Shown here: positions 7,554 to 29,459 of the stretch, in pieces
Position numbering within the stretch: position 1 is the stretch's first letter
Layout: every line of letters starts with the position of its first letter
Source: Spirochaetia bacterium
Lineage (GTDB): Bacteria > Spirochaetota > Spirochaetia > CADAEX01
DNA: 64,000 bases
Direction: 5' to 3'
NCBI GenBank assembly: GCA_963662795.1
Contig: OY759746.1
Span: 2,144,001-2,208,000, forward strand
Translations under genes and position numbers: made by a program
The notes under the pieces: model-generated
Database searches by the model: none
The model's input: the letters and a program-made list of their open reading frames with translations, nothing else
Told to the model about the DNA's origin: nothing

Positions 7554-7565
7554 GGATCATTTAAA

Positions 7566-7682
7566 ACATAACAAACATTTTAACCGGTCCGGATTTTTAT
7601 TATGCATTTTGCCCGCTTCGTTCAAATGCAATATACACGCCAACACTTCGTGACAATCCAGCAGGTTAAATGGATTTTATAA
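7566..7682 (+). repeat. attC, foreign type (inner cassette C), R' mutated to TTTATAA
   Basis: ACATAAC...TTTAACC/GGTTAAA...; expected GTT reads TTT at 7676. Confidence 0.7.
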
Positions 7683-7754
7683 AATAAAAAAAAGAGAAAA
7701 AAGTCCAGCCTTGGCTCCGCCGTGCGGCTTGGACAGAAAGCGGCTGGTACTGGA

Positions 7755-7926
7755 GCATAACAGAGGATAAGGCGCTTCGCTCGGAATACCTCGCTTGGCC
7801 TGCGGCACACATCGTAGGTTTTGAATTACAACTTCTATAAACAACAAGTATTGGAAGAAAAATATTGCAACTTTAAAATAGATATTCTTTGTCTACTCTG
7901 CGTCGCTTATCCTCGGGACGTTATGC
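7755..7926 (+). repeat. attC, native type A
   Basis: GCATAAC...GTTATGC with type A arms. Confidence 0.85.
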
Positions 7927-8099
7927 TCAATACCAGCCGCAAGATGCGATCGCCCGGACCTCCGGCCAACGGGCGAGGATATGCGGTAAATTAATATAAC
8001 TTATGTGAACAATCTATCTGGAAAATTTAATAAATGTTCTTTAAATAATTCGTTTAAGAATTGAGAAAATATATTACAAACTAATGTTGTAAAATTGAT

Positions 8100-8129
8100 T
8101 TGACAATGTGCCATAAAAGTGGTACATTA
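8100..8129 (+). promoter_or_regulatory. sigma70-like promoter with overlapping operator palindrome of TA operon
   Basis: TTGACA at 8100, TACATT -10-like; AATGTGCCA...TGGTACATT inverted repeat. Confidence 0.55.
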
Positions 8130-8133
8130 AAGA

Positions 8134-8499
8134 GTGGATAAACAAGATTGTATTGTTTATATAGGACAATGTTTTACTATTGAATGGTATTATGATTCAA
8201 CAGGTTATAGTCAAGCTTTTGAGTATTTTAAATCGACAAGTCAAGCTCAAAAGCGAAAATTCTTTGTCCTGGTAAAGCGAATAGCTGAATTTGGGAAGAT
8301 AATGGATATAACCAAATTCAGAAATGAGGGAGATGAAATATATGCATTCAAACCACAACCAGATCGATATTTATGCTTTTTCATGAAGGGGAAAAAGATA
8401 ATAATAACAAATGGTTTCAGTAAACGAACTGATAAGCTACCAAAGAAGGAAAAAGAAAAAAGTATAAAAGCAATGGAAGATTATAAACAAGGAAGGTAG
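8134..8499 (+). CDS. RelE/HigB-like (Gp49-type) type II toxin
   Basis: KFRNEGDEIYAFKPQPDRYLCFF...IIITNGFSKRTDKLP; toxin-first order. Confidence 0.8.
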   Translation: MDKQDCIVYIGQCFTIEWYYDSTGYSQAFEYFKSTSQAQKRKFFVLVKRIAEFGKIMDITKFRNEGDEIYAFKPQPDRYLCFFMKGKKIIITNGFSKRTDKLPKKEKEKSIKAMEDYKQGR

Positions 8500-8503
8500 A
8501 AAA

Positions 8504-8773
8504 ATGGAAACAACTTTTGATAAATATATAAATAATGATCCCAAAGAACGTGAAAAGTTTGATAGGGAATATGCGGATTTTCTTCTTTCTGAATTTGTTC
8601 TCGAAAAAATGGATCAAGAGAATCTTTCTGTCAGAGCATTAGCAAAAAAAGCTGGTGTGTCTCCAACAATAATTCAAAAAATCAGAAGTAAAAATGCAGA
8701 AAAAATTAATTATAGAACTTTTTCAAGTGTACTCAATTCTCTTGGATATAAAATAAATATTGAAAAAATTTGA
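8504..8773 (+). CDS. HTH (Xre) antitoxin
   Basis: LSVRALAKKAGVSPTIIQKI helix-turn-helix. Confidence 0.8.
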   Translation: METTFDKYINNDPKEREKFDREYADFLLSEFVLEKMDQENLSVRALAKKAGVSPTIIQKIRSKNAEKINYRTFSSVLNSLGYKINIEKI

Positions 8774-8932
8774 TCATATTTTCTTCCAACAATAGATTTC
8801 TCCGGAAAGCACTGAAAAACATTTTTTCATTTAAACAGAGATCAATACGAAATAAGGAAATCCTAAAAAAAAGAAAAGAAGTCCAGCCTTGGCGTTGCCG
8901 TGCGGCTTGGACAAGAAGCGGCTGGTACTGGA

Positions 8933-9105
8933 GCATAACAGAGGATAAGGCGCTTCGCTCGGAGTACCTCGCTTGACCTTCGGCACACATCGTAGGGTTT
9001 GAACTACAATTTTTAGGAACAATAAGTTTTTAGAAGAAATAAATTACAACATTGTGTTTTCTACTCTTTGTCTACGATGCGTCGCTTATCCTCGAGACGT
9101 TATGC
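8933..9105 (+). repeat. attC, native type A
   Basis: GCATAAC...GAGAC-GTTATGC. Confidence 0.85.
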
Positions 9106-9216
9106 TCAATACCAGCCGCAAGATGCGATCGCCCGGACCTCCGGCCAACGGGCGAGGATTTGCAAACCAATTATATATTTGATAAAGTGTTGCTACATAC
9201 AACAACTAGGAGAATA

Positions 9217-11322
9217 ATGGAAAAATTATTACTTTTTATTCCTCAATGGCAAGACTCTGGATTAACCAATGAGCTTTATCATGGTTCGTATGCTCTTAAA
9301 AATTATTCTGAAGAATATGGAAAATGTAATTTTAAAGCAATAGAAGTTGATAGCAAAAAAGAACTTATCAAAGAAAATAATATATTGGGATATTCAATAT
9401 TATTTGATCAACTAGAAAGAGTAAGAGAAACTATTAATGATAATAAACCTTTGAAAATATTTTCTTTAGGTGGAGGCTGTGGAATTGAAGTTCCAATAGT
9501 TTCATATTTATATTCATTATATCCTGATTTAACTCTATTCTGGTTTGATGCTCACGGAGATTTAAATACACCTGAAAGTTCTCCAAGTAAATATTTTCAT
9601 GGAATGCCATTGAGGTTCCTTACCGAAAAAATTGAGAATAAAATTGGTGACGGAATAGATATAATACCGACCAGCCAGGTACATTTAATAGGAGCTAGAG
9701 ATTTAGATGAGCCAGAAAAAATATTTATTGAATCAGAGAGGATAGATGTTATTCGAATAGAAGAAGATTTTATAAGTAAGATCATAGGTGTCCAAAACAA
9801 TCATAACAGCTCCAGTTGAAGATTGAAACTAGTTTTTTTAGTCTGTTCTGAAGGCGGTTTATTGAGAACAGTCCAGATATCTTTTCTTGATGTCAGTATT
9901 ACAGGAATCAATTTCATCAGTGAAAAATGAGTCCATTTTCTACATGAAAACATTTTAAGGAACTGAAGTAACAGAAAAGCAATTAGGGCAATCCAGATTT
10001 GTGTCATTACAGCATTTCTGGAAGTACCAAAGAATTTCTTGATCTTGAGGTTCTGTTTGATAGTTTTAAAAAATATTTCAATCTGCCATCTGTCTTTGTA
10101 AACAGCAGCAATTGTTGTTGGAGACCAAAGGAAATTATTGGTAAGAATTACAATATATTTACCGGTTTCAGGATCTCTGCTTCTGATTCGTCTTAATTTT
10201 AACGGGCATTTTTTACTGGTGTAAAATCCTTTCATTTCTATGATCTGATCAGATGTAATATTTTTAAAGGAGGAGGTATCTTTTCTCTGGACAATTTTAT
10301 AATCAGCATTCTTTTTTAACCTGGTAACAAAATAAATACCGGTATTACAATAATTTGCGAATAATTTAAAGTCAGTATAACCACGATCAAACGTGATGAC
10401 ATCGCCTTTGTTGAAAGCCATTTTTTTCAAGGAATTGACTTCATGTGTTTTTGCAGTTGTAACTGATACAAAAGCTGGAATATATCCACTATGGTCAAGT
10501 TTTACATTAAGTTTTATTCCGCCTTTATATTTTCTGAAATTTGCCCATGGAAAGAGATTTAAACACAAGTCAATAGTTGATGCATCAACACTGTAAAGAG
10601 GATTTTTAAATTTATGTTTATGCGCTCTCTTCATGGATAATATCTTATCAAGAAGATCAGTGAAAACATTTTCATAAACTTCACAGCTTCTATTATTATT
10701 TGCGTAAGATAATGTAGAGCGTTTTACCTTTTTTACACCCATATGATAAAGGTGGTTACTGATTGATTCAAAAGAGTTTTCAATGCCTCTTAACCCGGTC
10801 TGTCCTGAAAGTTGTGCAAAGAGCATGGAGACAAAATGCTGCCAACAGGTAAAACCTTTGGAAGCAAAGTCCCCTTTATGTTTTTTTACAGATTTTTCAA
10901 ATTCATGTCTCGGAATTATTTGTAGAATTTGTTTTAAAATGGTATTATTGTAACTCATTGCCTGATTTCCTTTTCCTGTAAAGAATTAGCCGTCCAAGCT
11001 TAATTCATTATAGTTGGGATTTCAGGCAATTAATAGTCCTTGTTTTGGACACCTATGAAGTAAGATAATGAATTTAGTAAGAGATAATAAGAATAAAAAG
11101 GCTTATATTCATATAGATTTAGATGTTATAGATCCAAAATATTATAAAAATGTGAAGTGTCCTACTGAAAATGGCTTAAAAATATTTGAATTGACAGAAG
11201 CAATTGAATTGGTCAATAAAGAAATGGAAATAATAGGGTTAAGCATTGTGGAAAATACAGAAACTGAAAAGGCTAAAATCAAGAAATTGGAAAAAATAAT
11301 TAAACTTGGATTAAATATTTAA
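9217..11322 (+). pseudogene. Arginase-family protein interrupted by IS4-family element
   Basis: LGGGCG, WFDAHGDLNTP..S...HGMPL before IS; YIHIDLDVIDP after; 9 bp DR AAGTAAGAT. Confidence 0.88.
9783..11057 (-). mobile_element. IS4-family element copy 1 (1275 bp; transposase 9801..10958)
   Basis: IRs CATAGGTGTCCAAAACAA; 9 bp DR; DUF4372-like N-terminus, VDASTI, FDRGY, YKDRWQIEIFFK. Confidence 0.93.
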
Positions 11323-11417
11323 TAACCTAAATCAAATTGAACATTAACTTTCTAAGAAAGAAGAGAGTCCGGCCTTGGCGTTGCCGTGCGGCCTGGACAA
11401 GAGCGGCTGGTACTGGA

Positions 11418-11587
11418 GCATAACAGAGGATAATGCGCTTCGCTCCCTTTGGTCGCTTGGGCTTCGCCACACATCGTAGATTTTGAACTACAACTTCTAT
11501 AAAAAATAAGTTTTGGAAGAAAAATATTGTAGCTTGAAATAATAATTCTTGGGCTACGATGCGTCGCTTATCCTCGGGACGTTATGC
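11418..11587 (+). repeat. attC, native type A
   Basis: GCATAAC...GTTATGC. Confidence 0.85.
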
Positions 11588-11636
11588 TCAATACCAGCCG
11601 CAAGAGGACGCCGCCCGGACCTCCGGCCGACGGGCG

Positions 11637-11708
11637 AAGAAAATAGAATCTGCTGTATAATATACTTTATACATAAACATATATAGATTTCTAGTTATTT
11701 AATATGTT
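11637..11708 (+). other. attI-like internal landing pad, copy 3 (G11706|TT)
   Basis: Pad sequence; GTTAGATTT complements AAATCTAAC (12784-12792). Confidence 0.75.
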
Positions 11709-11735
11709 AGATTTATTTAGGAGGAAACCAATTAG

Positions 11736-12683
11736 ATGACAATCTCCAACGACGACAAAATATTGATAATTGGTGGTGGGGCAATCGGATTCTCTCTCGC
11801 TGTTCACCTAAAGCATTCGGGAAAAAAAGTTGCCGTAGTCCGTGTTAGTACTAAGCTAGAAGAAGCTACTACTCAGAAAGTATCTGTAGTGGACTTGAAC
11901 AATAAAACATTAGTGCAGGAAATAGACTGCTACTCGCTAGAAAGCATAGAGAAAATTCAAGGAACAGTTGTTGTCGCTACAAAAGCTAATGCAAACATTC
12001 AGATTGCTGATGTTTTAGAGAAGAATGCCCACGAAATAAATCTGGTGATAATGCAAAATGGAATTGGGGTAGAAAACCCTTTCTTAGAAAAAGAATTCCA
12101 TAGCATCTTCCGGTGCGTAGTATATATAACTGCAGAAAAGACAGGGCCAGAATCCTTTTCTGCTCGAATGATCAAACCATCTCCAATTGGAATTATTAGT
12201 GATAAAAAGGAACCTAAAGAAAGGCTTGCAACAATACTTTCTACAAACGGTCTATCTTTTTACGAAGAAGATAACATTGAAAAAGAAGTATGGAAGAAAG
12301 GAATCGTCAATGCTGTCTTCAATTCAATATGCCCATTAATTGAAGTTGATAATGGGATTTTTGCCCGAGATAACAATATCCTCGAACTAGCAAGAAAAAT
12401 AGTTATGGAATGTGTTCCCATTGCAGGCGAGCAAGGAATTTTATTAAACACTGAGGAAATTATTGACCAAATTATTCAAATCAGTAAACGTTCTACAGGA
12501 CAGCTAATCTCAACCCTTCAAGATATTCGTAAAAATCGGGAGACTGAAATAAATTTTCTGAATTTAGAAATATGTAGAATTGCTAAGACACTTACTCCTC
12601 CTATTAGCCTTCCAATAACAGAAGCCCTTGGGGAACTCATACTTAAGAAGTCAGAACAAAGAGTAAATGATGAAATGAAGTGA
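11736..12683 (+). CDS. Ketopantoate reductase (PanE/ApbA family)
   Basis: IIGGGAIG, VATKA, MQNGIG, WKKGIVNAVFN, STLQDIRKNRETEINFLN. Confidence 0.85.
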   Translation: MTISNDDKILIIGGGAIGFSLAVHLKHSGKKVAVVRVSTKLEEATTQKVSVVDLNNKTLVQEIDCYSLESIEKIQGTVVVATKANANIQIADVLEKNAHEINLVIMQNGIGVENPFLEKEFHSIFRCVVYITAEKTGPESFSARMIKPSPIGIISDKKEPKERLATILSTNGLSFYEEDNIEKEVWKKGIVNAVFNSICPLIEVDNGIFARDNNILELARKIVMECVPIAGEQGILLNTEEIIDQIIQISKRSTGQLISTLQDIRKNRETEINFLNLEICRIAKTLTPPISLPITEALGELILKKSEQRVNDEMK

Positions 12684-12785
12684 GTGTGTAACACGACCTT
12701 TAGGTTGCATACATGATCTCGGTAATTAGAATTCACAAAGGAAAAAGTTAAAATAGGTCATTTGAAAGATATGTTGCGATCAAAA

Positions 12786-12823
12786 ATCTAACAATCGCTT
12801 ACAGCTGAAGCGGAATGTTATAA
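12786..12823 (+). repeat. Minimal 38 bp attC-like site (inner cassette D)
   Basis: ATCTAAC-AAT-CGCTT(A)CAGCTGAAGCG-GAAT-GTTATAA. Confidence 0.7.
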
Positions 12824-12901
12824 AAATAAAAAATAGAAAAGGGAAAGAAGTCCAGCCTTGGCTCCGCCGTGCGGCCTGGACAAGAAGCGGCTGGTACTGG
12901 A

Positions 12902-13071
12902 GCATAACAGAGGATAATGCGCTTCGCTCCCTTTGGTCGCTTGGGCTTCGCCACACATCGTAGATTTTGAACAACAACTTCTATAAAAACAAGTTTTTGA
13001 AGAAAAATATTATAACTTTGAAATAATAATTCTTGGGCTACGATGCGTCGCTTATCCTCGGGACGTTATGC
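12902..13071 (+). repeat. attC, native type A (near-identical to 29539-29708)
   Basis: GCATAAC...GTTATGC. Confidence 0.85.
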
Positions 13072-13171
13072 TCAATACCAGCCGCAAGAGGAAACCGCCC
13101 GGACCTCCGGCCCACGGGCGAAGAAGAATTATTTTAAAAAGTGAATTATAATAAACAAAATTACCAAAAAA

Positions 13172-13200
13172 TTGATTGCAAATATATATTATCATACAAT
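13172..13200 (+). promoter_or_regulatory. Putative sigma70 promoter of ncRNA-SLATT-RT operon
   Basis: TTGATT-17 nt-TACAAT ending 9 nt before the structured region. Confidence 0.55.
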
Positions 13201-13209
13201 AAAATATTT

Positions 13210-13337
13210 ATGGCCCTTTGTGTTTTCAACACAACTTCATTATATCTGAGGGATAACTATTTAATACAGAAATATCTGTTACCATAATTGGTAAGTCTTT
13301 TCGAAGGCGCTAAAGTACCGAATCCATGAAGGGCCAT
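13210..13337 (+). ncRNA. Putative RT-associated structured ncRNA (DRT10/UG17-like)
   Basis: Closing stem ATGGCCCTT/AAGGGCCAT enclosing hairpins TGTGTT/AACACA, ACAGA/TCTGT, TTACCA/TGGTAA and GTCTT-TTCG-AAGGC. Confidence 0.7.
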
Positions 13338-13355
13338 TTTTACAGGAGTTAAATA

Positions 13356-13907
13356 ATGAGTGATTATGCAGATCGTATTTGGAAAACTAAAAAAATTAGA
13401 ATTAATACTGAGTCTCGGTTATTAGAAAATTCAATAATTTATGAAATTATAATACCTTTATATTCATTATTTTTTATCTTGTTAGTTATATTACCAGGAG
13501 GAGAAGATAGTAATTGCATAAAAATATTCTCAATTGCTGGATCATTAATTATTTTGATAGCTTCCATAATTGCTTCTAATCAAAATTATCAATTACGGGC
13601 ATATAAAATGAAACAACATTATATTATGTTGGATAAACTATATATAAAAATTGTAAATACTAATGATGAAAATAAAAAAGAAAAAATATTTTATAAATAT
13701 TTAAAAGAATTAGAAAATGTGGAAAACCATATTGATTATGATTATAAAAAAACTATCATTTCTTTAAGAAAAGACAAAAATTGTACTTTTCCAAAACCTA
13801 CTTTTTCTGAAATGATATTGTTTTATATGATTATTATCAAAAGGTGGAGTATTATTGTATTTTTTCTAGGGATACCAGTAATAATAAGTGCAATTATAAT
13901 TTTATGA
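13356..13907 (+). CDS. SLATT-domain membrane effector
   Basis: IWKTKKIRINTESRL N-terminus, two TM helices, RAYKMKQHY, ENH, C-terminal TM. Confidence 0.75.
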   Translation: MSDYADRIWKTKKIRINTESRLLENSIIYEIIIPLYSLFFILLVILPGGEDSNCIKIFSIAGSLIILIASIIASNQNYQLRAYKMKQHYIMLDKLYIKIVNTNDENKKEKIFYKYLKELENVENHIDYDYKKTIISLRKDKNCTFPKPTFSEMILFYMIIIKRWSIIVFFLGIPVIISAIIIL

Positions 13908-15213
13908 ATGCTTCAGAGATTTTTAAAAAAGAATTTACTACTACTAATCTTTTTCAAATTTACATTGATAAAATACAAAAAAATGCTACTGTTGGTACAG
14001 ATGGAGTAAGTTTAAAGAGGTTTGAAAAATATTTAACGCAAGAATTAATTTTAATAGAAAGAAAAGTTAAAAATTGTAAATACAAATACATCCCTTATAA
14101 ATGTATTTTAATTTTGCGTGGAATTAATAAAAAACCAAGAGTTGTTGAAAAACCAGCAATACGAGATAGATTAGTATTACGTGTTATTTTTAATATTCTA
14201 AATGAAGTTTACAAAAAAGATTTAGAAAAAAGAATGCTTCATTCGCAATTAAAACGTTTGATATACTCTGTTAATGAAAAAAAATACAATTATGTATTAC
14301 GCTATGATGTAGAAGATTTTTATCCATCAGTATCTCACTTATTATTAATGAAAATTATAAAGAAAAGAATACGAAATATAGAACTAAATCATTTAATCAT
14401 AAATGCTATTAAAAATGTTAATGATTTACAAAAAGCCAATAATATTGAAAGTAATGAAAAAGGAGTTCCACAAGGTCTTTCGATATCAAATGTATTATCA
14501 AATGTTTATTTAATCAATATTGATAAAAAATATGAAATACAAAATGATTTAGAATATTATAGATTTGTTGATGATATTTTAATACTTTGTCAACAAGACA
14601 AACATGCTAGAATTAATGATAATATAATCAATGATTTTAAAAAGCTTGGGCTGACTTTGCATAAAGATAGTAGTAAGCATTTTTCTAAGAGTATAGACGA
14701 ACCATTTGATTATTTGGGCTATACTTTTACATCTGGTAAAATTGGTGTAAGAAAGAAGAGTATAGAAAAAATAAGAGAAAGCATACTATCTTTGCTTTCA
14801 ACTCATAAATACAAAAAAATAAAAATACTGAATTGTTGATTTTCAAAATAAACATTAGAATTACTGGATGCATAATAAATAGTAATAAATATGGTTGGTT
14901 GTTTTATTTTTCTCAAATAAATGACGAAGCATTATTACATTCCTTGGATAATTTTGTAAGAAAACAATTAAAACGATTTAACATAGAAAATCAAAAAACA
15001 AAAAAATTTGTAAGAACTTGGAAAGAAATAAATAATAACTTTCATACAACAAATTATATACCAAATTATGATTTGATAACAAAAGAAAAGAAAGAAAAAA
15101 TTATCAAAATATATAATCTAAAATACTCCTTTTATGATATAGACGATATTTTTAAAAAAATTATTAATAGAGAAATTAAATATTTAGAAAAAGATATGGC
15201 TGGGTTATCGTAG
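13904..15213 (+). pseudogene. Reverse transcriptase (UG17/DRT10-like), split by 1 nt frameshift near A7 run 14813-14819
   Basis: ATGA overlap with SLATT stop; PAIRDRL, YDVEDFYPS, GVPQGLSISNVLSNVYL, YRFVDD, FDYLGY; second frame continues RITGC...YGWLFYFSQIND. Confidence 0.8.
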
Positions 15214-15286: not shown

Positions 15287-15456
15287 GCATAACAGAGGAT
15301 AAAGCGCTTCGCTCCCTTTGGTCGCTTGGGCTTTGCCACACATCGTAAGTTTTAAATTACAACTTCTATAAACAACAAGTTTTAGAAGAAAATATTACAA
15401 CTTTGAAAAATTCATTCTTGAACTACGATGCGTCGCTTATCCTCGGGACGTTATCC
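15287..15456 (+). repeat. attC, native type A
   Basis: GCATAAC...GTTATCC. Confidence 0.85.
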
Positions 15457-15504
15457 ACAATATCATCGCAAGAGAACGCCGCCCGGACCTCCGGCCAACG
15501 GGCG

Positions 15505-15547
15505 AAGAAAATAGAATCTGCTGTATAATATACTTTATAGTTAAGAT
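15505..15547 (+). other. Truncated landing pad, copy 5 (cut by IS4)
   Basis: AAGAAAATAGAATCTGCTGTATAATATACTTTATA then IS. Confidence 0.6.
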
Positions 15548-16822
15548 CATAGGTGTCCAAAACAAGGACTATTAATTGCCTGAAATCCCAACTATAATGA
15601 ATTAAGCTTGGACGGCTAATTCTTTACAGGAAAAGGAAATCAGGCAATGAGTTACAATAATACCATTTTAAAACAAATTCTACAAATAATTCCGAGACAT
15701 GAATTTGAAAAATCTGTAAAAAAACATAAAGGGGACTTTGCTTCCAAAGGTTTTACCTGTTGGCAGCATTTTGTCTCCATGCTCTTTGCACAACTTTCAG
15801 GACAGACCGGGTTAAGAGGCATTGAAAACTCTTTTGAATCAATCAGTAACCACCTTTATCATATGGGTGTAAAAAAGGTAAAACGCTCTACATTATCTTA
15901 CGCAAATAATAATAGAAGCTGTGAAGTTTATGAAAATGTTTTCACTGATCTTCTTGATAAGATATTATCCATGAAGAGAGCGCATAAACATAAATTTAAA
16001 AATCCTCTTTACAGTGTTGATGCATCAACTATTGACTTGTGTTTAAATCTCTTTCCATGGGCAAATTTCAGAAAATATAAAGGCGGAATAAAACTTAATG
16101 TAAAACTTGACCATAGTGGATATATTCCAGCTTTTGTATCAGTTACAACTGCAAAAACACATGAAGTCAATTCCTTGAAAAAAATGGCTTTCAACAAAGG
16201 CGATGTCATCACGTTTGATCGTGGTTATACTGACTTTAAATTATTCGCAAATTATTGTAATACCGGTATTTATTTTGTTACCAGGTTAAAAAAGAATGCT
16301 GATTATAAAATTGTCCAGAGAAAAGATACCTCCTCCTTTAAAAATATTACATCTGATCAGATCATAGAAATGAAAGGATTTTACACCAGTAAAAAATGCC
16401 CGTTAAAATTAAGACGAATCAGAAGCAGAGATCCTGAAACCGGTAAATATATTGTAATTCTTACCAATAATTTCCTTTGGTCTCCAACAACAATTGCTGC
16501 TGTTTACAAAGACAGATGGCAGATTGAAATATTTTTTAAAACTATCAAACAGAACCTCAAGATCAAGAAATTCTTTGGTACTTCCAGAAATGCTGTAATG
16601 ACACAAATCTGGATTGCCCTAATTGCTTTTCTGTTACTTCAGTTCCTTAAAATGTTTTCATGTAGAAAATGGACTCATTTTTCACTGATGAAATTGATTC
16701 CTGTAATACTGACATCAAGAAAAGATATCTGGACTGTTCTCAATAAACCGCCTTCAGAACAGACTAAAAAAACTAGTTTCAATCTTCAACTGGAGCTGTT
16801 ATGATTGTTTTGGACACCTATG
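15548..16822 (+). mobile_element. IS4-family element copy 2 (transposase 15647..16804), no matching DR
   Basis: Same IRs and protein as copy 1; flanks AGTTAAGAT vs ATTTAATAT. Confidence 0.93.
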
Positions 16823-17248
16823 ATTTAATATAATAAACTGTCTGTTCTTAATAGAATTAGAATAGATGGGAATGAAGCAGAAAAACTTGGAAAAGATGAT
16901 TATCTAAAAGATTATTTAAAAATACTAGAAGCAATTCTTTTTAGAAAACATATAGATTATATGATGGAAGATGAATATCGGTTTATATCTTTTTCAAAAA
17001 AGAAATACGATTTTATAAATATAGAAAACTGTATCAATGGTATAATTGTGTCGTTAAATAATTTAAAAGAATGGCAAGTAAACAAATATGTTGAATTTGC
17101 TGAAGAAAATAATATTGAATTATTGTTTATATCGTGGAGTCAAAAAGGTTTTGATTTAGAAGGATATAAAGAATACATAAGATTTTTAAATATAGTTCAA
17201 GAGATTTTTAATAACAGTACAGCAAATGAAAATATTAATAAGCTATAA
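16823..17248 (+). pseudogene. 3' remnant of a cassette gene, probably 5'-truncated by IS4
   Basis: 95 aa ORF 16961..17248 whose frame appears to extend upstream toward the IS end. Confidence 0.45.
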
Positions 17249-17307
17249 CATGTTTTAGTCCAGCCTTGGCTCCGCCGAGCGGCTTGGACAAGAAGCCTGG
17301 CCACTAC

Positions 17308-17499
17308 GTATAACAGCGATTATTTCGCTGCGCTCCCTGTGGTCGCTTGGGCTCCTGCCAGTTGAGCTGGCAGATCGCCATATTTTGTTTTCATAAAACC
17401 GGAACAACATGTGCTTTGTGCTCTTCAAGTTTGTAAAAACCAAATAAAAGTATTTTAGAGTTTAGTCACAAAACATCGAATAATCGCGAGACGTTCTCC
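17308..17499 (+). repeat. attC, native type C (192 bp)
   Basis: GTATAAC-AGCGATTATTTCG...CGAATAATCGCGAGAC-GTTCTCC. Confidence 0.85.
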
Positions 17500-19340: not shown

Positions 19341-19493
19341 ACATAACAGCGAATGACCGGTTCCGGCTGTTTCTAAGGAAGCAGCCTCCGCCCAAATTGC
19401 CGAAATAATACATGTTAAGAATAATGGAAAAGAGTATAAACTTTTGGAGTGAAAACACCATCGGCAACTTCGGTCATTCGCGGGACGTTATAC
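19341..19493 (+). repeat. attC, native type B
   Basis: ACATAAC-AGCGAATGACC...GTTATAC. Confidence 0.85.
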
Positions 19494-19620
19494 GTAATGG
19501 CCAGGCAAGAGAAAATCGCCCGGACCTCCGGCCGACGGGCGAGGATATGCGGTATAATTATATTATTATCGAATAAAAATTGACAATTTTTGCATAATGT
19601 AATACAATATGTAATACGAG

Positions 19621-19875
19621 GTGCAAATTATGACTACTGTAAGATTAAATGATGATATTGATAACAAATTATCAGTATTAATTGAACTAGAAAGAGCAAC
19701 TAAAACAGAAATAATTAAAAAAGCAATAGCTGAGTATTATGAACAACATTTTTTGGAAAAAACGCCATATGAAGTCGGAAAAGATTTATTTGGGAAATAT
19801 GGAGATAATGAAGATTTATCGCAAACTTATAAGACAAAACTCAAGGAAAAGTTGAATGCAAAACATACTCATTGA
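19621..19875 (+). CDS. Ribbon-helix-helix antitoxin
   Basis: MTTVRLNDDID...TKTEIIKKAIAEY; overlaps PIN gene. Confidence 0.8.
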   Translation: MQIMTTVRLNDDIDNKLSVLIELERATKTEIIKKAIAEYYEQHFLEKTPYEVGKDLFGKYGDNEDLSQTYKTKLKEKLNAKHTH

Positions 19876-20275
19876 TGCGGGACCAATAATAGCTTTATTT
19901 AATAAGAATGACAAATATCATGAAAAAATTAAAATTTTTATGAAGAATTATGAAGGGAAATTGATCAGTACCTGGCCAGTAGTAACAGAAGTATCACATA
20001 TGCTTGATTTTAATATTCAAACTCAAATAGATTTTTTAACTTGGATAAAATTGGGTGGGGTGAGTGTTGAGAACCTAGAAAAAGAAGATCTTAATAGAAT
20101 AATTGAATTATCTAAGAAATATTCTGATATCCCAATGGATTTAGCCGACGCTTCATTAATAGTTCTTTCAGAAAAAATGAAAATAAAACAAATTATAACA
20201 ATAGACTCTGATTATTATGTTTATAGAACAATTAATAAAGAAATGTTGGAAAACGTATTTAAGTATAAAAACTAA
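19856..20275 (+). CDS. PIN-domain (VapC) toxin
   Basis: ILIDAGPIIA...DKYH...VVTEV...MDLADASL...ITIDSDY. Confidence 0.88.
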   Translation: MQNILIDAGPIIALFNKNDKYHEKIKIFMKNYEGKLISTWPVVTEVSHMLDFNIQTQIDFLTWIKLGGVSVENLEKEDLNRIIELSKKYSDIPMDLADASLIVLSEKMKIKQIITIDSDYYVYRTINKEMLENVFKYKN

Positions 20276-20465
20276 AAAAGGTGATGTAATAATAAGTAAT
20301 ATTTTTACAGTAATTAGAATTATGGAACAAAACAAGCATTTGAAATTGACGTTTTCTCACTTTGCTGAGAAAGAGCAATTCAAATGAATGGTATAAATTA
20401 TGTATAGAAAAGAATGTCCAGCCTTGGCTCCGCCGAGCGGCTTGGACAAGAAGCCTGGCCACTAC

Positions 20466-20619
20466 GTATAACAGCGAATGACCGGTTCCGGCTGTTTCTA
20501 AGAAAACAGCCTCAACCCAAATTGCCGGAATAAATAGTGGTACAACTTGATGAATACAAAATAAGCTTGAAGGGTAACAAATAACAGCGGCAACTTCGGT
20601 CATTCGCGGAACGTTATCC
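20466..20619 (+). repeat. attC, native type B variant
   Basis: GTATAAC-AGCGAATGACC...GTTATCC. Confidence 0.85.
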
Positions 20620-22397: not shown

Positions 22398-22399
22398 TT

Positions 22400-22660: not shown

Positions 22661-22728
22661 TTAATAAGAAAAGAATACGCCCAGCCCTTGGCGGTGCCGT
22701 GCGGGCTGGAAGACGCGGAGGTACATGC

Positions 22729-23365: not shown

Positions 23366-23413
23366 AATGATAATAGTTATGATTAAAAAATGATCATTAT
23401 CTGAATATAAGAA

Positions 23414-23866
23414 GTGAGGTTAAACATGAAAGAAGTGATAACCGAGATTGAGATAAATGCAAGTATCTCAAAAACATGGGAAGTTTTTTCTGCCTTTTCT
23501 GAATACCATAAATGGAACCCATTTATTAAATCAATCTCAGGAGATGTTAATCCTGGTAATACAATTATTGTAATTTTACAACAACCAGGTATGAAACCAA
23601 TGAAAATGAAGCCAAAAGTAATATCATTTAAAAAAGAAGAAGAATTAGTCTGGATTGGACATTTATTCATTCTAGGAATATTTGATGGAGAACACTCTTT
23701 TCGATTTATCAAAAACAAAGATGGAAGTACAAAGTTTATACAAAAAGAACTTTTTAAAGGACTAATAGTACCAATGCTTAATAGGATGCTGGATAAAAAC
23801 ACCAAGAATGGATTCGAACTTATGAATGAAAAACTAAAGCATGAAGTTGAAATGAAAAGATTATAA
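23414..23866 (+). CDS. SRPBCC (polyketide cyclase/START-like) protein
   Basis: ITEIEINAS...W..F..Y..WNPFI...FDGEHSF...GFELMNEKLK. Confidence 0.8.
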   Translation: MRLNMKEVITEIEINASISKTWEVFSAFSEYHKWNPFIKSISGDVNPGNTIIVILQQPGMKPMKMKPKVISFKKEEELVWIGHLFILGIFDGEHSFRFIKNKDGSTKFIQKELFKGLIVPMLNRMLDKNTKNGFELMNEKLKHEVEMKRL

Positions 23867-23991
23867 AATATTGAAACGAAAAAACGATTTGATAAAAACT
23901 GAATTATTGAATTAAAGAAATTACAAAGGAATTTAAATAAGTCCAGCCTTGGATCCGCCGTGCGGCCTGGACAAGAAGGGGGGGCACTGGT

Positions 23992-24085
23992 GGATAACAG
24001 CGGGGAAGAAGCTGCGCTCGCAGTAGCTCGCTTGGGCTTCGCCATATTTTGCTATCAAATAACTAGAGTAATTCTTGTTATGTTA
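23992..24085 (+). repeat. Left half only of a native type D attC
   Basis: GGATAAC-AGCGGGGAAGAAGCTGCGCTC... with no complementary right arm. Confidence 0.6.
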
Positions 24086-24132
24086 TTTTCGAGCAAAAAA
24101 TTAACAGAAACAAAAAATAAAGGAGAAAAATT

Positions 24133-24753
24133 ATGAGCAAAATAATTTTTGACAGTGGAATATCCCTTGACGGTTTTTTCGCAGGAGACAACAGAAGTCC
24201 TAAAAATCCTATGGGTGGTGTTTCAGGACAAATTCACTTGTGGATGTTTAATCAAAAAGCTTTCTGGGAATACCTGGGGTTTGAAGGAGAAAAAGAAGAC
24301 GGTGCTGACGGAAAATACATTAGAGAGACAATCGCAAGAACAGGTGCATTCATTATGGGAAAACGTATGTTTGAGGAAGGCGAAGCCAGTTGGCCAAATG
24401 ACCTATACAAAGCTGACGTTTATGTATTAACACACAAAAAGCGAGAACCTTGGGTTCAAGAAGGAACGACAACTTTTTACTTCATAAATGATGGAATAGA
24501 AAGTGCCTTGGACAAAGCAAGACAATCAGCAAAAGGAAAGGACATAAGAATACAAGGTGGGGCAAACACTATTCAACAATTTCTAAATGCAAGACTTGTG
24601 GACGAGTTTTTTATTCACATTGCACCCGTGTTTTTAGGAAGCGGCATCCGACTTTTTGACGGTATTGATAAAGACATGTACAACATACAAATCGTAGAAG
24701 TGATACCGTCTGAATTAACGACTCATTTAAGATATAAATTGACTAAGAAATGA
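24133..24753 (+). CDS. Dihydrofolate reductase-like (RibD C-terminal) protein
   Basis: ISLDGFFAG, IMGKRMF, GKDIRIQGGANTIQQFL, PVFLGSGIRLF. Confidence 0.85.
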   Translation: MSKIIFDSGISLDGFFAGDNRSPKNPMGGVSGQIHLWMFNQKAFWEYLGFEGEKEDGADGKYIRETIARTGAFIMGKRMFEEGEASWPNDLYKADVYVLTHKKREPWVQEGTTTFYFINDGIESALDKARQSAKGKDIRIQGGANTIQQFLNARLVDEFFIHIAPVFLGSGIRLFDGIDKDMYNIQIVEVIPSELTTHLRYKLTKK

Positions 24754-24764
24754 AAACAACGACC

Positions 24765-24894
24765 CGCTAACAATGTATATACAAAATGGGCGGAATAGTA
24801 ATAATTTCAACGGTTGTAGCCCGCTTCAAAATTGTCTCGGTTTGATAAGTTTGAAGCCCGCAATCGCCCACTTTGCATATACTAACCGTTATGC
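24765..24894 (+). repeat. attC, foreign type
   Basis: CGCTAAC...GTATATACAAAATGGGCG/CGCCCACTTTGCATATAC...GTTATGC. Confidence 0.8.
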
Positions 24895-25003
24895 TCAATA
24901 CCAGCAGCAAGAGGAAATCGCCCGGACCTCCGGCCAACGGGTGGGGAGAATGAAGTTTAATTATATCAAAACTATTGTATAATGCAAATAAAGGATAAAA
25001 ACG

Positions 25004-25690
25004 ATGAATAAAATAAAATCTGAAATAAAAAAAAGAATCCCGGGTTTTTTATATCTTATTCTTGCAATAACTGGATTTTATACTCCTTTTGTAATGGATA
25101 AATTTAGTTCTATCCTTGATGCAACACAATGGTACGAGGCAATTATTCAGAATCAATTATTCTTCTCCTCTGGGATTTTAAGTTTCTATTTGATGAACAT
25201 TTCATGGTTAATGCTTGCTTATTCATTGTACAGTATTTTTAAAATGACTTATAAAACATATTCAAATATATTATTACTATCTGTAATTTCAGGGACAATT
25301 TTAGTGTTTATTTTAATTGTCGCCAAGTCAATACCTTTATACTTAATGTCTTTAACTCACCAAAATACTATAGCTAATCCAATGATTTGGATAGAGAGAG
25401 CCCATTTTATATTTATTTTAAGCATGAAAAGCAATATTTCAGCCTATTTGTTTTATTCTATTTGGCTCTTACCTCTTGCAATTTTAATTATAAAAGATCC
25501 AAAAATAACAAACATAGAAAAGATAATATTATCAATTTCACTAATTTTTGCAGCTATAGGATATATGGCAGATTTTCTATTATTTCATTGTTATCCGCAG
25601 CATAACAATATAAAAATAACAGATTTCACTTTTTATGGTGAAGTGATCGTATTATTATGGCTATTATTAAGGGGAATCAATAAAAATTAA
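25004..25690 (+). CDS. Multi-pass membrane protein (DUF4386-like)
   Basis: About 6 hydrophobic segments; GFLYL, W.LPLA.LI.K, GE...LLWLL.RG. Confidence 0.6.
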   Translation: MNKIKSEIKKRIPGFLYLILAITGFYTPFVMDKFSSILDATQWYEAIIQNQLFFSSGILSFYLMNISWLMLAYSLYSIFKMTYKTYSNILLLSVISGTILVFILIVAKSIPLYLMSLTHQNTIANPMIWIERAHFIFILSMKSNISAYLFYSIWLLPLAILIIKDPKITNIEKIILSISLIFAAIGYMADFLLFHCYPQHNNIKITDFTFYGEVIVLLWLLLRGINKN

Positions 25691-25798
25691 TAGACAAGAA
25701 GCAACATTTAAAATGTACAGGTAGAGTATTACCTAACAATGAAAGAAGTCCAGCCTTGGCTCCGCCGTACGGCCTGGACAAGAAGTGGGGGCACTGGT

Positions 25799-25971
25799 GG
25801 ATAACAGAGGATAAGGCGCTTCGCTCCCTTTGGTCGCTTGGCCTTTGGCATATTTTGCTATCATTAGAACCAAGTGATTTAAATTTAATACTTTTTGAGA
25901 TTTTAAAATAACAAACAAATATCTGTTAGAGTTTTCAACGCAAAACATCGCTTATCCTCGGGACGTTATGC
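25799..25971 (+). repeat. attC, native type A variant
   Basis: GGATAAC...GTTATGC. Confidence 0.85.
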
Positions 25972-26020
25972 TCAATACCAGCCGCAAGAGGACGCCGCCC
26001 GGACCTCCGGCCGACGGGCG

Positions 26021-26091
26021 AAGAAAATAGAATCTTCTGTATAATATACTTTATTTATAAGATATATAGTTTTCCAGTTATTTAATATGTT
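26021..26091 (+). other. attI-like internal landing pad, copy 4 (G26089|TT)
   Basis: Pad sequence; GTTATCTA complements degenerate TAGATAGC (29415-29422). Confidence 0.72.
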
Positions 26092-26680
26092 ATCTACAAT
26101 TAGGTTTGGTACAGTGCCTTTTTAAAAATATCTAAAAGGATGTATTGGAATATAAAAAAAATAATAGAAAATTAATATACCTTTGATAGAGATGATCTTA
26201 ATGGATCAGCAAAAGAAATTTATCCTTCTTTTGAAAAACTGAACAGTACAGTTTAAGATATCTATGCAAGGATTTTACCGCTTGGGAGTGGGTAGTTATA
26301 TATTTCAATTACATGTATTTCTATTTTGCTGAAAACATATAGACTTCTATCAGCTAGGCACAGGTTTTTAGCAACTTCACATACGTTGTAGCCTCGCTTT
26401 ATTACTTGTTTTACTGCTTCTATTTTAAATTATTCTGCCTAACAGCATTCTTCCCTTGTTTATTCCTTACTTCATAATAGGTTATTATGTATCTTAAAAT
26501 GGAAGTACTCCATAGATTTGAAGACATTCAAAAAAATGAGTAATTGAAAATAATGGTTTTATCTAAAAAACATCAATTTTATGACAGTCTTGAAACCATA
26601 AAAATCTATTTTTTAAAAAAATTGACAAAAAATATTATTTAAGACAATAATTAATTAAAAAAAAAGTAGAGGAATAAAAA

Positions 26681-29305
26681 ATGTTTAAACGTATTTCTGC
26701 TCAAAAAGGTGATAAGCTAACCCAAATCTTTATTTTATTGTTCATACTCCCCATTTTTCTGATGTTTTTTTTATCATGTATGTCTTTAAATCAATCTGGC
26801 AGCGAAAAATCACTTAGTTTTAGAGAATCACATGATAATTTTATCCAATTTTTGAACGAGCATCCTGATTATCAACCTTTAAGCAGCCGTGTCAATTTAA
26901 TTCAGCTGACAGAATATGCTGATATTATTCCTCTCTCTTATGATAAAACTCCGGCGAACAGAACACAAACCTTTAGAATGGACACTCTTTTTGAAAGTGG
27001 GCCGAAAGTTTATTATCTTAATGGATTTTTTTATTATTTTTATGTAATTAAAGGTATGATAAAAGGAGTTAAAATTGATTTAAAAAATAGAACTTATTCA
27101 AATGTTGACGTGTCATCAAATAAACATTTTGCAATTTACCGTGATCCAGCTAATGAAAAGTTGGAATTAATCCCATTCGGCCGGGATTTTACAAAGACGA
27201 AAGTTGTTTCTTCAAAAGGGGGTAGTCTCCCTTTCTACGGGACACATGAAGCTTTATGTCTTGATCCTCCTCTTTATATCTATGAAAGTTCAAGAGAAGG
27301 ATTTCCTCTGGAATCGTTTCTTATAATTCCCCGTGATTTAGATGGCTTGGGTAAAATTATGTATGAAGAAAATTACTATAAAAATGGATATAATCTGGTT
27401 ACTGGTCTTGATAAAAAAGGATTTGATCGTAACGGTTATGATAAAGATGGTTATGCACACCATGGCTATAACAGGAAAGGTTATGACAGGGATGGTAATA
27501 ATTATTCAGGACCAATAGGGGCTAATGGGAAAACTGGTTTTGGAACACTTAAGTGGGCCAACGGTGATGTATATCATGGGTACTTTCAGAATAATGAAAT
27601 TAACGGTATGGGGATCATTAATGGTACAGATGGTGCAATATATGCAGGCTCTTTCCAGGAAGAAATGAAAATAGGTCAGGGGCTCCTTTACTCTCCAGAT
27701 GGAACAAAAAAGTTGGTGTCATGGAAAGATGGAGAAATGTATATAATTTCATCAAATCCTGGACAAGTGATTGAGCCAGATGGGGAGTGGGCATTCCTTG
27801 GTAAAGGTGTTAAAAATGGACTGGCTCAGGGAAGAGGAGATGCTGTAGGAATAAAAAGTGGATGGATAATTACTAACGGTCTATTTGAACAGGGCCGCTT
27901 AATTGAAGGCTCTCTTCTTACTGTTAATGGAACATCATATAGAGGCCGTTTTACTGATGGACTTCTTTCAGATGGCAAAATCCTGTCAGCCAATGGCACT
28001 GCATATACCGGTCATTTAAGGAATGGAATCCCGGATGGTGCAGGGCAGCAAGTGGATAAAGACGGGATATTCTATGAGGGGAATTTTTCAAACGGACGAT
28101 TTGAGGGTAATGGAGAATTAACGCTTCAAAATGGCGATGTTTATAATGGAGCATTTGTTAATGGAGTTCCTCATGGTAGCGGTATATATAAAAACTCTAC
28201 CGAAGGAAGTATAGAGAAGTGCGAGTTTTACGAAGGAAAAAGAATTGATCAACTCTACTTAATGAAAATAGCATTGGCAGAAGAAGAAGACAAAAAACTA
28301 GCAGAGGGTGAGCGGTTAAAACTGGAAGAGGAAGTTAGGTTGCGAGAGGAAAAAGCCAGACAACAGGCGGCTGAAAATGTAGAAAAGAAAGCTTCAAAAA
28401 AGAACTTATTCGGTGCCTTTGTCGCAGGAGCATCAACTGTTGTAGTCGGGAATGCTTATGGTTTGGATTCCAGTGACACTTTATTGCTGGCAACAGCTGC
28501 GGCAAAAGATGTAATAAGTGATACTGATGGAGAAAATATAAGAGCTATGAGTGATACACTAATTGAAAATAAAAAGCAGATGAAAACCTGGGAATCAAAA
28601 TATGGTCAATCCGACTTATCAAATGTATCAGGCAGCAATACTTTCTTGTCCCAAAAACAGCAGCCATTGCAAGACATAAATAATAATCCAGCAGATAAGA
28701 ATCCAGTTCTCACAAATTTGAAATCCAGAGCATCCAGTAATAATGCGGAAATTCCAAAGAAAAATCCTTTAGCTGAACCACCGCAGATGAATAAGGAAAT
28801 TAAATCAGAAAATAACAAATTACTCGATCTACCTAAATCAAATAAAAGCGGGAGGAGTGTTCTTCGCGGGTTAATTGATCGTGATGTGCGTTATTCTCCT
28901 GAATACAGGACCGGTGAGGTTACCTTTAGAAATCCTCAGACTGGGATAGAAAGTATTACAATTAAACTGAATAATGGAGCCATAGGTGAATTAACCTGGA
29001 ATGGGAATTATAAATGGATTGCTGCCAATGGCTATAATCAAAAATCGCCATATCTAGTTGGTTGTGTAGTTGAATTGAGCAGTGAACAAAACAAAATATA
29101 TGTTCTTATGAGCCACAATGATGTTGTTCCAACAGATGCAGGTGATAAATATGGCTATAATTTAGCATGGAGTGCAAACGGGTCAACTTTGAAGAGTGTA
29201 TCTGGCAGTCAATTTACACCATTCTCCAAGGAAGAAACTTCAGCAATTTTTGAAGATTTGCATTATTCCAGTTATCAACCCACTGCTGCTTGGCTAGTTT
29301 GGTAA
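26681..29305 (+). CDS. Large MORN-repeat putative lipoprotein
   Basis: Signal peptide ending FFLSC; G(Y/F)D..G repeats; many YxGxFxxGxxxGxG MORN repeats; coiled-coil segment. Confidence 0.8.
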   Translation: MFKRISAQKGDKLTQIFILLFILPIFLMFFLSCMSLNQSGSEKSLSFRESHDNFIQFLNEHPDYQPLSSRVNLIQLTEYADIIPLSYDKTPANRTQTFRMDTLFESGPKVYYLNGFFYYFYVIKGMIKGVKIDLKNRTYSNVDVSSNKHFAIYRDPANEKLELIPFGRDFTKTKVVSSKGGSLPFYGTHEALCLDPPLYIYESSREGFPLESFLIIPRDLDGLGKIMYEENYYKNGYNLVTGLDKKGFDRNGYDKDGYAHHGYNRKGYDRDGNNYSGPIGANGKTGFGTLKWANGDVYHGYFQNNEINGMGIINGTDGAIYAGSFQEEMKIGQGLLYSPDGTKKLVSWKDGEMYIISSNPGQVIEPDGEWAFLGKGVKNGLAQGRGDAVGIKSGWIITNGLFEQGRLIEGSLLTVNGTSYRGRFTDGLLSDGKILSANGTAYTGHLRNGIPDGAGQQVDKDGIFYEGNFSNGRFEGNGELTLQNGDVYNGAFVNGVPHGSGIYKNSTEGSIEKCEFYEGKRIDQLYLMKIALAEEEDKKLAEGERLKLEEEVRLREEKARQQAAENVEKKASKKNLFGAFVAGASTVVVGNAYGLDSSDTLLLATAAAKDVISDTDGENIRAMSDTLIENKKQMKTWESKYGQSDLSNVSGSNTFLSQKQQPLQDINNNPADKNPVLTNLKSRASSNNAEIPKKNPLAEPPQMNKEIKSENNKLLDLPKSNKSGRSVLRGLIDRDVRYSPEYRTGEVTFRNPQTGIESITIKLNNGAIGELTWNGNYKWIAANGYNQKSPYLVGCVVELSSEQNKIYVLMSHNDVVPTDAGDKYGYNLAWSANGSTLKSVSGSQFTPFSKEETSAIFEDLHYSSYQPTAAWLVW

Positions 29306-29321
29306 AAACTAAAAATATAAT

Positions 29322-29357
29322 AAAGCTTCTATGTATTCATTTACATAGGAGCTTTTT
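29322..29357 (+). terminator. Rho-independent terminator
   Basis: AAAGCTTCTATGTA-loop-TACATAGGAGCTTTTT just after the stop. Confidence 0.65.
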
Positions 29358-29415
29358 AAATTAATTTAAAATCAAAAAAGTATTACATGCTAATTGAAAT
29401 CAATATGAGATGTTT

Positions 29416-29459
29416 AGATAGCAAACGATTCGAGCAGCCCGCTCAATCGGGCGTTATAA
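29416..29459 (+). repeat. Minimal 44 bp attC-like site (inner cassette E), R'' degenerate
   Basis: AGATAGC-AAA-CGATT(C)GAGC-AGCCC-GCTCAATCG-GGC-GTTATAA. Confidence 0.68.

Follow-up and report, generated by a model that had tools for sequence, protein, structure and literature searches.

Classical integron cassettes nested in a giant host-type cassette array of a Spirochaetia bacterium: a possible route by which imported genes become naturalised

Two old questions about integrons are how lineages come to have their typical attC sites and by what process cassettes arise in the first place, and the locus described here provides a concrete and testable route. We analysed a 64-kb stretch of a Spirochaetia genome (positions 2144001-2208000 of contig C1 of genome G000, which is a single contig of 3.93 Mb with a GC content of 39.7%), hereafter the window, whose positions 1-36724 are the distal end of a very large cassette array in which some cassettes hold, within their own boundaries, attC sites of a second, classical kind. 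A preliminary description of this DNA, made from its letters alone, proposed that a foreign gene is captured in a "pad" inside a host cassette and then loses its own attC, so that a cassette with host-type ends remains. The question is therefore whether the locus bears such a route out. Our reading, to which we give a probability of about 65%, is that two cassette systems meet here, that classical cassettes have been docked in pads of host-type cassettes, and that their inner attCs have been eroding after the loss of the canonical integron integrase (IntI). As a naturalisation route for an imported gene the proposal is supported, while as a general explanation of species-wide attC homogeneity it is unproven.

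The array extends over C1:1847951-2180706, i.e., 332 kb or approximately 8% of the genome, and comprises 195 cassettes (a count that takes in the junction beside the recombinase gene), which are numbered here (#n) by their order; their lengths range from 624 to 6003 nucleotides (nt), with a median of 1448. A hidden Markov model (HMM) of the L'-R' part of the host-type site has 197 matches in the genome, and a single block at 1,849,020-2,180,706 accounts for 195 of these. Within the window, positions 1-36724 are low in GC (about 0.27-0.38) and are filled by this repeat of about 270 nt, which is seen approximately 22 times between 190 and 36724, for example:

5781-6028, plus strand: host-type outer site, with hairpin H5, 20-nt extension, R'' ATAAC, centre of about 130 nt, R' with its G at 5973, extension and hairpin H3.

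The order of the unit is always H5 (GTCCAGCC...GGAC), the 20-nt extension, R'' (...ATAAC), the centre of about 130 nt, R' (GTTAT...), the complementary extension and H3 (CGCCCGG...CGGGCG). The R' triplet of the outer site is GTT in 194 of the 195 cassettes and everywhere in the window, as expected from the earlier statement that the outer sites are intact, and the first 20 nt of a cassette are complementary to the R'' extension at its own 3' end in 186/195 cases, against 99/973 random pairings. Because the R' triplet is conserved and the ends are self-complementary, the host cassettes appear to be real units exchanged at G|TT. The first junction of the array (...CTAGGAG|TTATACG) lies 150 nt past the stop codon of the recombinase gene, in the attI-plus-array arrangement of a canonical integron.

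For the inner sites we used a covariance model, R1, trained on 32 classical attCs from the canonical arrays of relatives only, with no site of G000 among them; it contains 18 base pairs, 11 of which show compensatory changes. The relatives are G011, G005 and G008, which belong to the same family as G000 but to a different genus, and G020, which belongs to a different family. Applied to 370,200 bases of G000 at a threshold of E<0.01, R1 found 30 classical attCs, all on the plus strand, plus one opposite-strand echo; in the relatives' loci it gave 117 matches, of which 115 were analysed after one locus overlap and one opposite-strand duplicate had been dropped. All 30 inner attCs of G000 lie within host-type cassettes, 26 of them in long pads and four in cassettes #4, #32, #61 and #71, and they show the R''-L''...L'-R' palindrome by which a classical attC is recognised. 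They belong to the site family of the arrays beside IntI in G011, G005 and G008, and of the array in G020, to whose sites some of them are approximately 97% identical. The preliminary description was right that these sites belong to another, classical attC family, but judging by this comparison the "foreign" attCs are those of the bacterial group's own canonical integrons, co-resident with giant arrays in sister genomes, and not those of distant taxa. An Rfam scan of the 64-kb window gave no match.

Long pads, with a leader of about 70 nt directly after H3 (consensus AAGAAAATAGGATCTGCTGTATAATATACTTTATACATAAAATATATAGTTTTCTAGTTATTTAATATG), make up 27 of the 195 cassettes; four more cassettes have truncated or diverged versions of the leader. 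It ends in AATATG in 23/27 pads, and in 26/27 the next bases are TT followed by unrelated cargo. At the 3' end, before H5, stands an attC-like R' and then one of two purine-rich trailers; an R1 match (E<0.01) lies within 60 nt of H5 in 20/27 long pads, so not all of them have a recognisable terminal site. Pads of the window are the following:

1011-5973, plus strand: pad cassette #175, leader ending at 1135 (AATATG|TT), with nested classical cassettes 1136-2924 and 4682-5753.
5974-7920, plus strand: pad cassette #176, leader to 6098, with nested cassette 6099-7676 carrying ApeA (6150-7553).
11582-13065, plus strand: pad cassette #179, leader to 11706, with nested cassette 11707-12817 carrying a ketopantoate-reductase-like gene (11736-12683).
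15451-17493, plus strand: pad cassette #181, leader (HMM E 7e-9) cut at about 15540 by an insertion sequence (IS) with a 385-residue transposase, without target duplication.
25966-29702, plus strand: pad cassette #189, leader to 26089, with nested cassette 26090-29453 carrying a MORN-repeat protein (26681-29305).

The inner sites that close these nested cassettes, and the IS that follows one of them, are:

2807-2928, plus strand: first inner attC of #175 (R1 55.1 bits, E 4.1e-11), with an IS right after its R' GTT.
2925-4680, plus strand: this IS in #175, with its transposase at 3014-4552 (DDE_Tnp_1_6/DUF772), inverted repeats GAGGCTGTAG and CTACAGCCTC, and GTT on both flanks.
5618-5757, plus strand: second inner attC of #175, 140 nt, with intact AAC and GTT (R1 62.7 bits).
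7565-7682, plus strand: inner attC of #176 (R1 67.1 bits), R' TTT, the crossover G being replaced by T at 7676.
12785-12823, plus strand: 39-nt mini attC of #179 (R1 25.3 bits, E 0.0039; fold -5.3 kcal/mol, z -2.8).
29415-29459, plus strand: 45-nt mini attC of #189 (R1 37.3 bits, E 2.4e-6), with R'' AGC at 29420-29422 (G at 29421).

All five inner attCs of the preliminary description are thus present and scored by R1, although 2807-2928 and 5618-5757 fall outside the range 7566-29459 to which it had assigned them. Its details hold with small corrections: GTT changed to TTT at 7676, the IS at one site, the one intact site (given as 5619-5757), and the two short sites, which measure 39 and 45 nt rather than 38 and 44, the latter with AGC. 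The intact site folds on its bottom strand with -34.6 kcal/mol (z -6.35).

Each of these five cargos begins with eight bases that are the reverse complement of its own inner R'', and for this reason we regard them as true G|TT insertions. In #175 the inner R'' CGTAGAAC pairs with the cargo 5' end GTTCTACG, and the inner R'' CATATAAC with GTTATATG; at 12785-12823 R'' AATCTAAC matches GTTAGATT, and at 29415-29459 R'' TAGATAGC pairs with GTTATCTA with one mismatch. When the R'' box was sought 40-150 nt upstream of the pad's 3' attC-like R', the same relation (the first eight bases, G+TTnnnnn, with at most one mismatch) was found in 18/26 pads, while cross pairs matched in 143/650 cases (binomial p 3.5e-7 against the cross-pair rate of 0.22). 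The pads that fail include those holding two inner cassettes, and more than one inner attC is present in 5/27 pads. G011, G005 and G008 likewise contain pads whose junctions are G|TT. The pad junctions bear the footprint of circular classical cassettes that entered the leader at a single fixed position, each by a G|TT crossover.

With different cargo behind 26 of 27 leaders, this one G|TT position has been used repeatedly, which is the behaviour of an attI-like recipient site. At their attI junctions the relatives have ...TATATG|TTAT (G011), ...GTAATG|TTAT (G005 and G008) and ...AATATG|TTAT (G020), and the pad core AATATG|TTA resembles them; the pads are not adjacent to any intI. One could go further and suppose that pads are dedicated, mobile attI-like docking sites through which captures of the canonical integron pass into a larger store run by a Xer-like enzyme, but we put this forward only tentatively, and rate it well below even odds. 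If it were true, reloading of the shells, their duplication and the erosion of inner attCs would together yield varied cargo between identical host sites; such "re-badging" could then lie behind lineage-specific attC homogeneity in general, in a two-tier integron architecture. A promoter scan returned 54 sites, compared with 36.5 +/- 7.1 in shuffled sequence, and none in the pad leader, which gives no support for a canonical promoter there.

Damage is significantly commoner at the inner sites than at relatives' sites of this attC family, and also than at the outer sites of G000. Core triplets (AAC and GTT; in G000 scored by eye from the site ends, with #61 counted as intact despite an alignment offset) are mutated in 8/30 inner sites and in 3/97 sites of G008 (2/49), G011 (1/34) and G020 (0/14) (Fisher p 4.2e-4), and when the duplicated cassettes #4 and #32 are counted once the proportions are 7/29 and 3/97 (p 1.3e-3). 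An R' other than GTT occurs in 6/30 inner but 1/195 outer sites (p 2.2e-5); #4 and #32 carry an identical GTA, and the crossover G is replaced at 7676 and in three more independent sites (five site copies). Sites shorter than 71 nt number 3/30 among the inner and 0/115 among the relatives' native sites (p 0.008). Both mini attCs of the window keep their R and L boxes and lack the variable terminal structure; the 39-nt site also no longer has its extrahelical G or the greater part of its L stem, and the 45-nt site folds at -6.9 kcal/mol (z -1.8) with the R box unpaired. No full-length counterpart of the ketopantoate-reductase cargo was found: a search at the DNA level in 150 genomes of the class gave none with a full-length attC, and a metagenome scan gave 182 pattern matches and no relative. 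It is thus only by comparison with native sites that the 39-nt site is read as "cut".

The most advanced erosion was found in a cassette that had passed as ordinary:

19488-20613, plus strand: cassette #184, with a short leader at 19544-19562, a classical cassette beginning at the TT at 19563, and an RHH/PIN gene pair at 19621-20275.
20311-20405, plus strand: eroded inner attC of #184, with R'' AAAAC, an R' GTT lacking one T, and several stem changes.

Over 743 nt the RHH/PIN pair of #184 shares 89.6% identity with a cassette of the canonical array of G011 (L115 10682-9940), and the homology starts at the TT after the classical crossover G, which in G000 stands directly behind the short leader AGGATATGCGGTATAATTATA. 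At the other end, the 95 nt before H5 of #184 align to the 71-nt attC of the G011 cassette together with the end of the open reading frame (ORF) before it; G000 lacks an ORF of about 550 nt that G011 possesses. The alignment score of the eroded site is 78 against 23.2 +/- 3.6 for shuffled sequences (0/500 reach it), even though R1 gives it only 19 bits (E 0.2). As the cargo has 89.6% nucleotide identity while the array recombinases of G000 and G011 have 44.9% amino acid identity, the comparison points to #184 being a recent import. We would place #184 at a late stage of naturalisation, as an intermediate caught in the act, for which the classical cassette in the canonical array of G011 supplies the matching "before" state. 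Cargo occurring elsewhere with a classical attC, which the preliminary description had anticipated, is thus found for #184, but not for the ketopantoate-reductase gene. Altered crossover bases and #184 would be the strongest indications that function has been lost.

The two systems also differ in their recombinases. The gene for the array recombinase (L001:8782-9801) lies upstream of the array in the orientation of the cassettes, and its closest match is a protein of 79% identity in a metagenome-assembled genome from a biofilm. Against the integron integrase model TIGR02249 it reaches 200.1 bits in two stretches, below the cut-off of 265 that marks a canonical IntI, and on a XerA-type model it scores 214.5. 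It aligns to VchIntIA (2A3V) in two blocks, with residues 235-258 standing opposite chain residues 173-238, so that about 40 residues of the IntI-specific region are absent in comparison with 2A3V and with IntI of G011; KYPNAGKEWGWFW and the subsequent blocks of the G011 IntI are absent as well. By these comparisons the array recombinase is Xer-like and not a canonical integron integrase. The canonical intI of G000 was found at C1:412371-413302 as two pieces in different frames (175.8 and 195.7 bits on TIGR02249) with two TGA and one TAG, with IS elements and an rRNA operon as neighbours and no array beside it; no intact canonical IntI was found in G000, and this gene, which does not give a full-length match in a single frame, is a pseudogene. 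G011, G005 and G008 each hold a giant array with the Xer-like gene and, separately, an intact canonical IntI (384-400 bits) adjoined by a classical attC array in the usual divergent arrangement, and in G020 a classical array accompanies a frameshifted IntI.

The sequence of events that we favour would be as follows. A subset of the cassettes of the giant array would serve as docking shells with an AT-rich leader ending in AATATG|TT, and classical cassettes would have entered these pads by ordinary G|TT crossover, presumably catalysed by the canonical IntI. Since its gene is now a pseudogene, the inner attCs would be neither maintained nor used, and they gain core mutations, collapse to stubs, are split by an IS or erode nearly completely as in 19488-20613, possibly by neutral drift after the loss of IntI. 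The outer host-type sites stay intact and, if they are active, the cargo would remain a unit only within the host-type cassette, i.e., it would be naturalised. Capture in a pad followed by loss of the inner attC, as first proposed, accords with the nesting, the G|TT junctions, the excess damage and #184. These data establish that classical cassettes were captured inside host cassettes and that their sites erode; the inserting enzyme, the activity of the outer sites and the reason for the decay are inferred. The route thus runs from fixed-site insertion into a cassette of another system, through decay of the cassette's own site, to cargo with host-type ends, and all stages are visible in one genome.

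Several observations weigh against this reading. No empty pad was seen in G000 (0/27) or among the four pads seen in relatives, the pad leader has no nhmmer match near the canonical intI of the relatives, and its likeness to attI amounts to some 6-10 AT-rich bases. When all the relatives' sites are taken together, G005 included, core defects number 11/115 and the excess of 8/30 has only p 0.028; the G005 defects are 8/18, all eight with TGAGTATC in place of R''. Both core triplets are still intact in 22/30 inner sites. In addition, the attCs of G020 are intact in 14/14 cases although its intI is frameshifted, and of the two inner attCs known from relatives' pads, one has R' GCT even though its genome, G011, has an intact intI; loss of IntI is for these two reasons neither necessary nor sufficient for damage, and while it fits the decay of inner sites it is not a clean predictor of it. 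The reach of the route is also limited, as 163 of the 168 non-pad cassettes have no classical remnant and 5/168 have one. Finally, in one study, exchange of the 65-bp variable terminal structure of the Vibrio cholerae repeat (VCR) for 3 nt altered recombination only 1.6- to 2.4-fold (PMC2727003), so that the "cut" inner sites may still work.

The reach of the route depends in part on the leaders of ordinary cassettes. The preliminary description quoted three of these (19545, 20670 and 30941) as faint pad remnants, and they may instead be a functional motif beside H3, for instance a -10-like TATAAT, an alternative that we find possible though not the likelier one. The leaders are present, but they belong to a separate short-leader family (AGGATATGCAGTATAAT within four edits) found in 38/138 non-pad cassettes with H3 whatever their cargo, and the long-pad HMM gives E 11 for 19545 and 6.5 for 20670, while 30941 is not among its best 30 of 168 rows. 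Among the 168 non-pad leaders four are significant with this HMM, and all four are truncated or diverged true pads. These results, and the purine-rich tails that most cassettes have, agree with a functional motif. On the other hand, the classical cassette of #184 begins exactly where its short leader ends, 14/38 short leaders end in ..TG|TT, and the promoter scan made no call in the leader. The classical remnants outside long pads are #4, #32, #61 and #184, all behind short leaders, plus #71, a diverged long pad, and with pad variants excluded this gives 4/38 behind short leaders against 0/96 in the other non-pad cassettes (p 0.0057). Profiling of leaders and trailers for graded remnants therefore gave a partial answer: 5/168 non-pad cassettes, #184 among them, carry remnants, but the quoted leaders are not significant. 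The A-rich tails that had been reported are real and mild (A fraction in the last 30 nt 0.57 in pads and 0.49 in non-pads, against 0.41 in cassette interiors).

Other searches for remnants added no further cassettes. Two alignment scans of the tails with internal control segments, using the relatives' and the G000 sites as libraries, yielded none, and among the non-pad cassettes without an R1 match #184 alone exceeds every control segment. A tail match in #30 was a false positive of a misplaced hairpin coordinate, VapBC-type tails (#55, #147, #160 and #190) were dropped as L'-R' remnants because they score 43 against a control maximum of 54, and a scan for complementary 9-mers at the 5' and 3' ends of all cassettes (62/195 against 43-53 in shifted controls) was too noisy. 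The non-pad cargos #1, #6, #57, #87, #133 and #178 have matches of 65-77% nucleotide identity in the relatives' canonical arrays, with uninformative boundaries.

It is rather improbable, in our view, that the inner sites are normal variants of working attCs, the short ones being compact and efficient and the nested cassettes still mobile. The tolerance of VCR just described speaks for it (PMC2727003), as do the many intact cores and the fact that both mini sites were matched over the whole of R1 and fold as hairpins. However, the replaced crossover G at four independent sites, the absence of any site as short among the 115 native ones, the missing extrahelical G and L stem of the 39-nt site, the base lost from GTT in #184 together with its many stem changes, and the want of an intact canonical IntI in G000 all argue in the other direction.

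Less probable still is the reverse order of events, in which the host-type module is itself mobile and parts of a classical array were converted when it entered classical attCs at their G|TT. The topology is symmetric, as the G|TT of each pad junction is common to the classical site and the module, empty pads are missing, and the trailers differ right after the crossover (TTATAC.., TTAAAT.. and TTAGCT..). Nevertheless, pads are scattered among 168 non-pad host cassettes and show the pairing of outer ends that is usual for host cassettes; R1 does not recognise the leader end as an attC, some pads (5/27) contain a series of two classical cassettes, as an attI would, and no classical array is left in G000 that could have been converted.

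Sequencing or assembly errors as the source of the single-base changes and truncations can practically be dismissed, since, despite a highly repetitive array and a low depth of unique cargo in the runs (2-13), separate Logan contigs of three runs of one sample (X2-X4; uncovered stretches of run X1 were left out) show 0 differences over 6072-7727 and 11647-12872 (29421 lies outside both spans), the duplicated #4 and #32 have the same GTA, and a similar GCT occurs in a relative's pad. As the run contigs agree, neither the T at 7676 nor the 39-nt site is an artefact of the final assembly. Some source-run contigs join pad leaders to trailers (e.g., 11710->12829), which may be empty pads or other copies of pads, and these were not used as evidence.

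Docking of classical cassettes in host-type pads can be compared with several known situations. In mobile integrons, cassettes become fused or trapped by loss of an attC, and degenerate arrays lie behind inactivated intI genes, e.g., in Xanthomonas. The likeness is that a cassette whose attC is lost or mutated becomes immobile and fused to its neighbour, and that decay accompanies the loss of the integrase; the difference is that here the cassette is nested in a cassette of a second system, with another site type and recombinase, and its cargo would be mobilisable as a larger unit. Sequence derived from attI is also found inside class 1 and class 2 arrays as part of cassette boundaries, but it is the platform's own attI, whereas pads match attI at the core only and ride on the cassettes of another system. 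To our knowledge, an array of 332 kb exceeds the Vibrio examples. Insertion elements that target attC sites are known as well, namely the IS1111-attC group and group IIC-attC introns. A fixed attC position is also used by the IS type found at 2925-4680 and by the TGAGTATC-ended element of G005, but the family of the former differs (IS1182-like by Pfam), and it may target merely GTT: it has five genomic copies (among them one at 2074702 of G000), each after GTT, two of which are in the R' box of a classical attC. Further to the latter, TGAGTATC replaces R'' in the eight G005 sites (of 18; loci L116, L123 and L124) and in one site of G008 (L127), and looks like an element inserted at one fixed attC position.

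Classical cassettes have been reported to insert at 5'-GWT-3' genomic sites termed attG (10.1101/2022.09.11.507474); shared with the pads is entry by a single G|TT crossover at a double-stranded site other than an attC or the cassette's own attI, while attG sites are genome-wide and here one position in a multicopy 70-nt leader has at least 26 uses, in four genomes, which is more attI-like. With the sedentary chromosomal integrons of Vibrio (VCR; PMC8352920, PMC4889954) and Treponema (PMC3607928), our array shares its single orientation, the G|TT crossover, the pairing of R'' with its own 5' end, and cargo of toxin-antitoxin and defence genes; it differs in a recombinase without the IntI-specific domain, in sites of about 270 nt, in extra hairpins and in 20-bp R extensions. 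In the literature that full-text searches gave on attC taxonomy, Treponema integrons, attG and delta-attI cassettes (including PMC12901181), we found no cassettes docked at a fixed site within the cassettes of another site family, no very large array whose recombinase lacks the integron-specific domain, and no cross-talk between such an array and the canonical integrons of one bacterial family.

Several further elements mark this part of the genome. The IS with a 385-residue DDE transposase has four copies in the window (9790-11030, approximately 15541-16822, 41192-42349 and 47891-49048), one of which splits an arginase-like cargo with a 9-bp duplication; in #181 it lies in the pad leader without duplication, in a cassette with non-pairing ends, and a rearrangement mediated by the IS may account for this. 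The array stops at 36725, where its last site is interrupted by an IS481-like element (36821-38029). Hairpins like H3 and H5 also flank classical attCs in the canonical array of G020 (L107 1615-1640 and 3147-3175), and owing to this they would be a cassette feature of the group that is not tied to the giant sites. The first cassettes of the canonical array of G011 (L115 10700-13000) are repeated ORF-poor units of approximately 580 nt with near-identical attCs.

The cargo is rich in defence and toxin-antitoxin genes, among them the HEPN protein ApeA (6150-7553), SLATT with a reverse transcriptase (13356-14839), an HNH endonuclease (1232-1924), Gp49/HTH (8134-8773) and the RHH/PIN pair of #184 (19621-20275). 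Near-identical pieces of the ApeA cargo were found in a run from another study, by its listing a groundwater metagenome. One more cassette ends in a site of a different kind, to which R1 gives no match:

24764-24895, plus strand: third kind of attC, ending a RibD_C cassette (24133-24753), joined directly to a host R' and not in a pad.

Upstream of the RibD_C gene, a host site at 23941-24060 stands without its L'/R' half.

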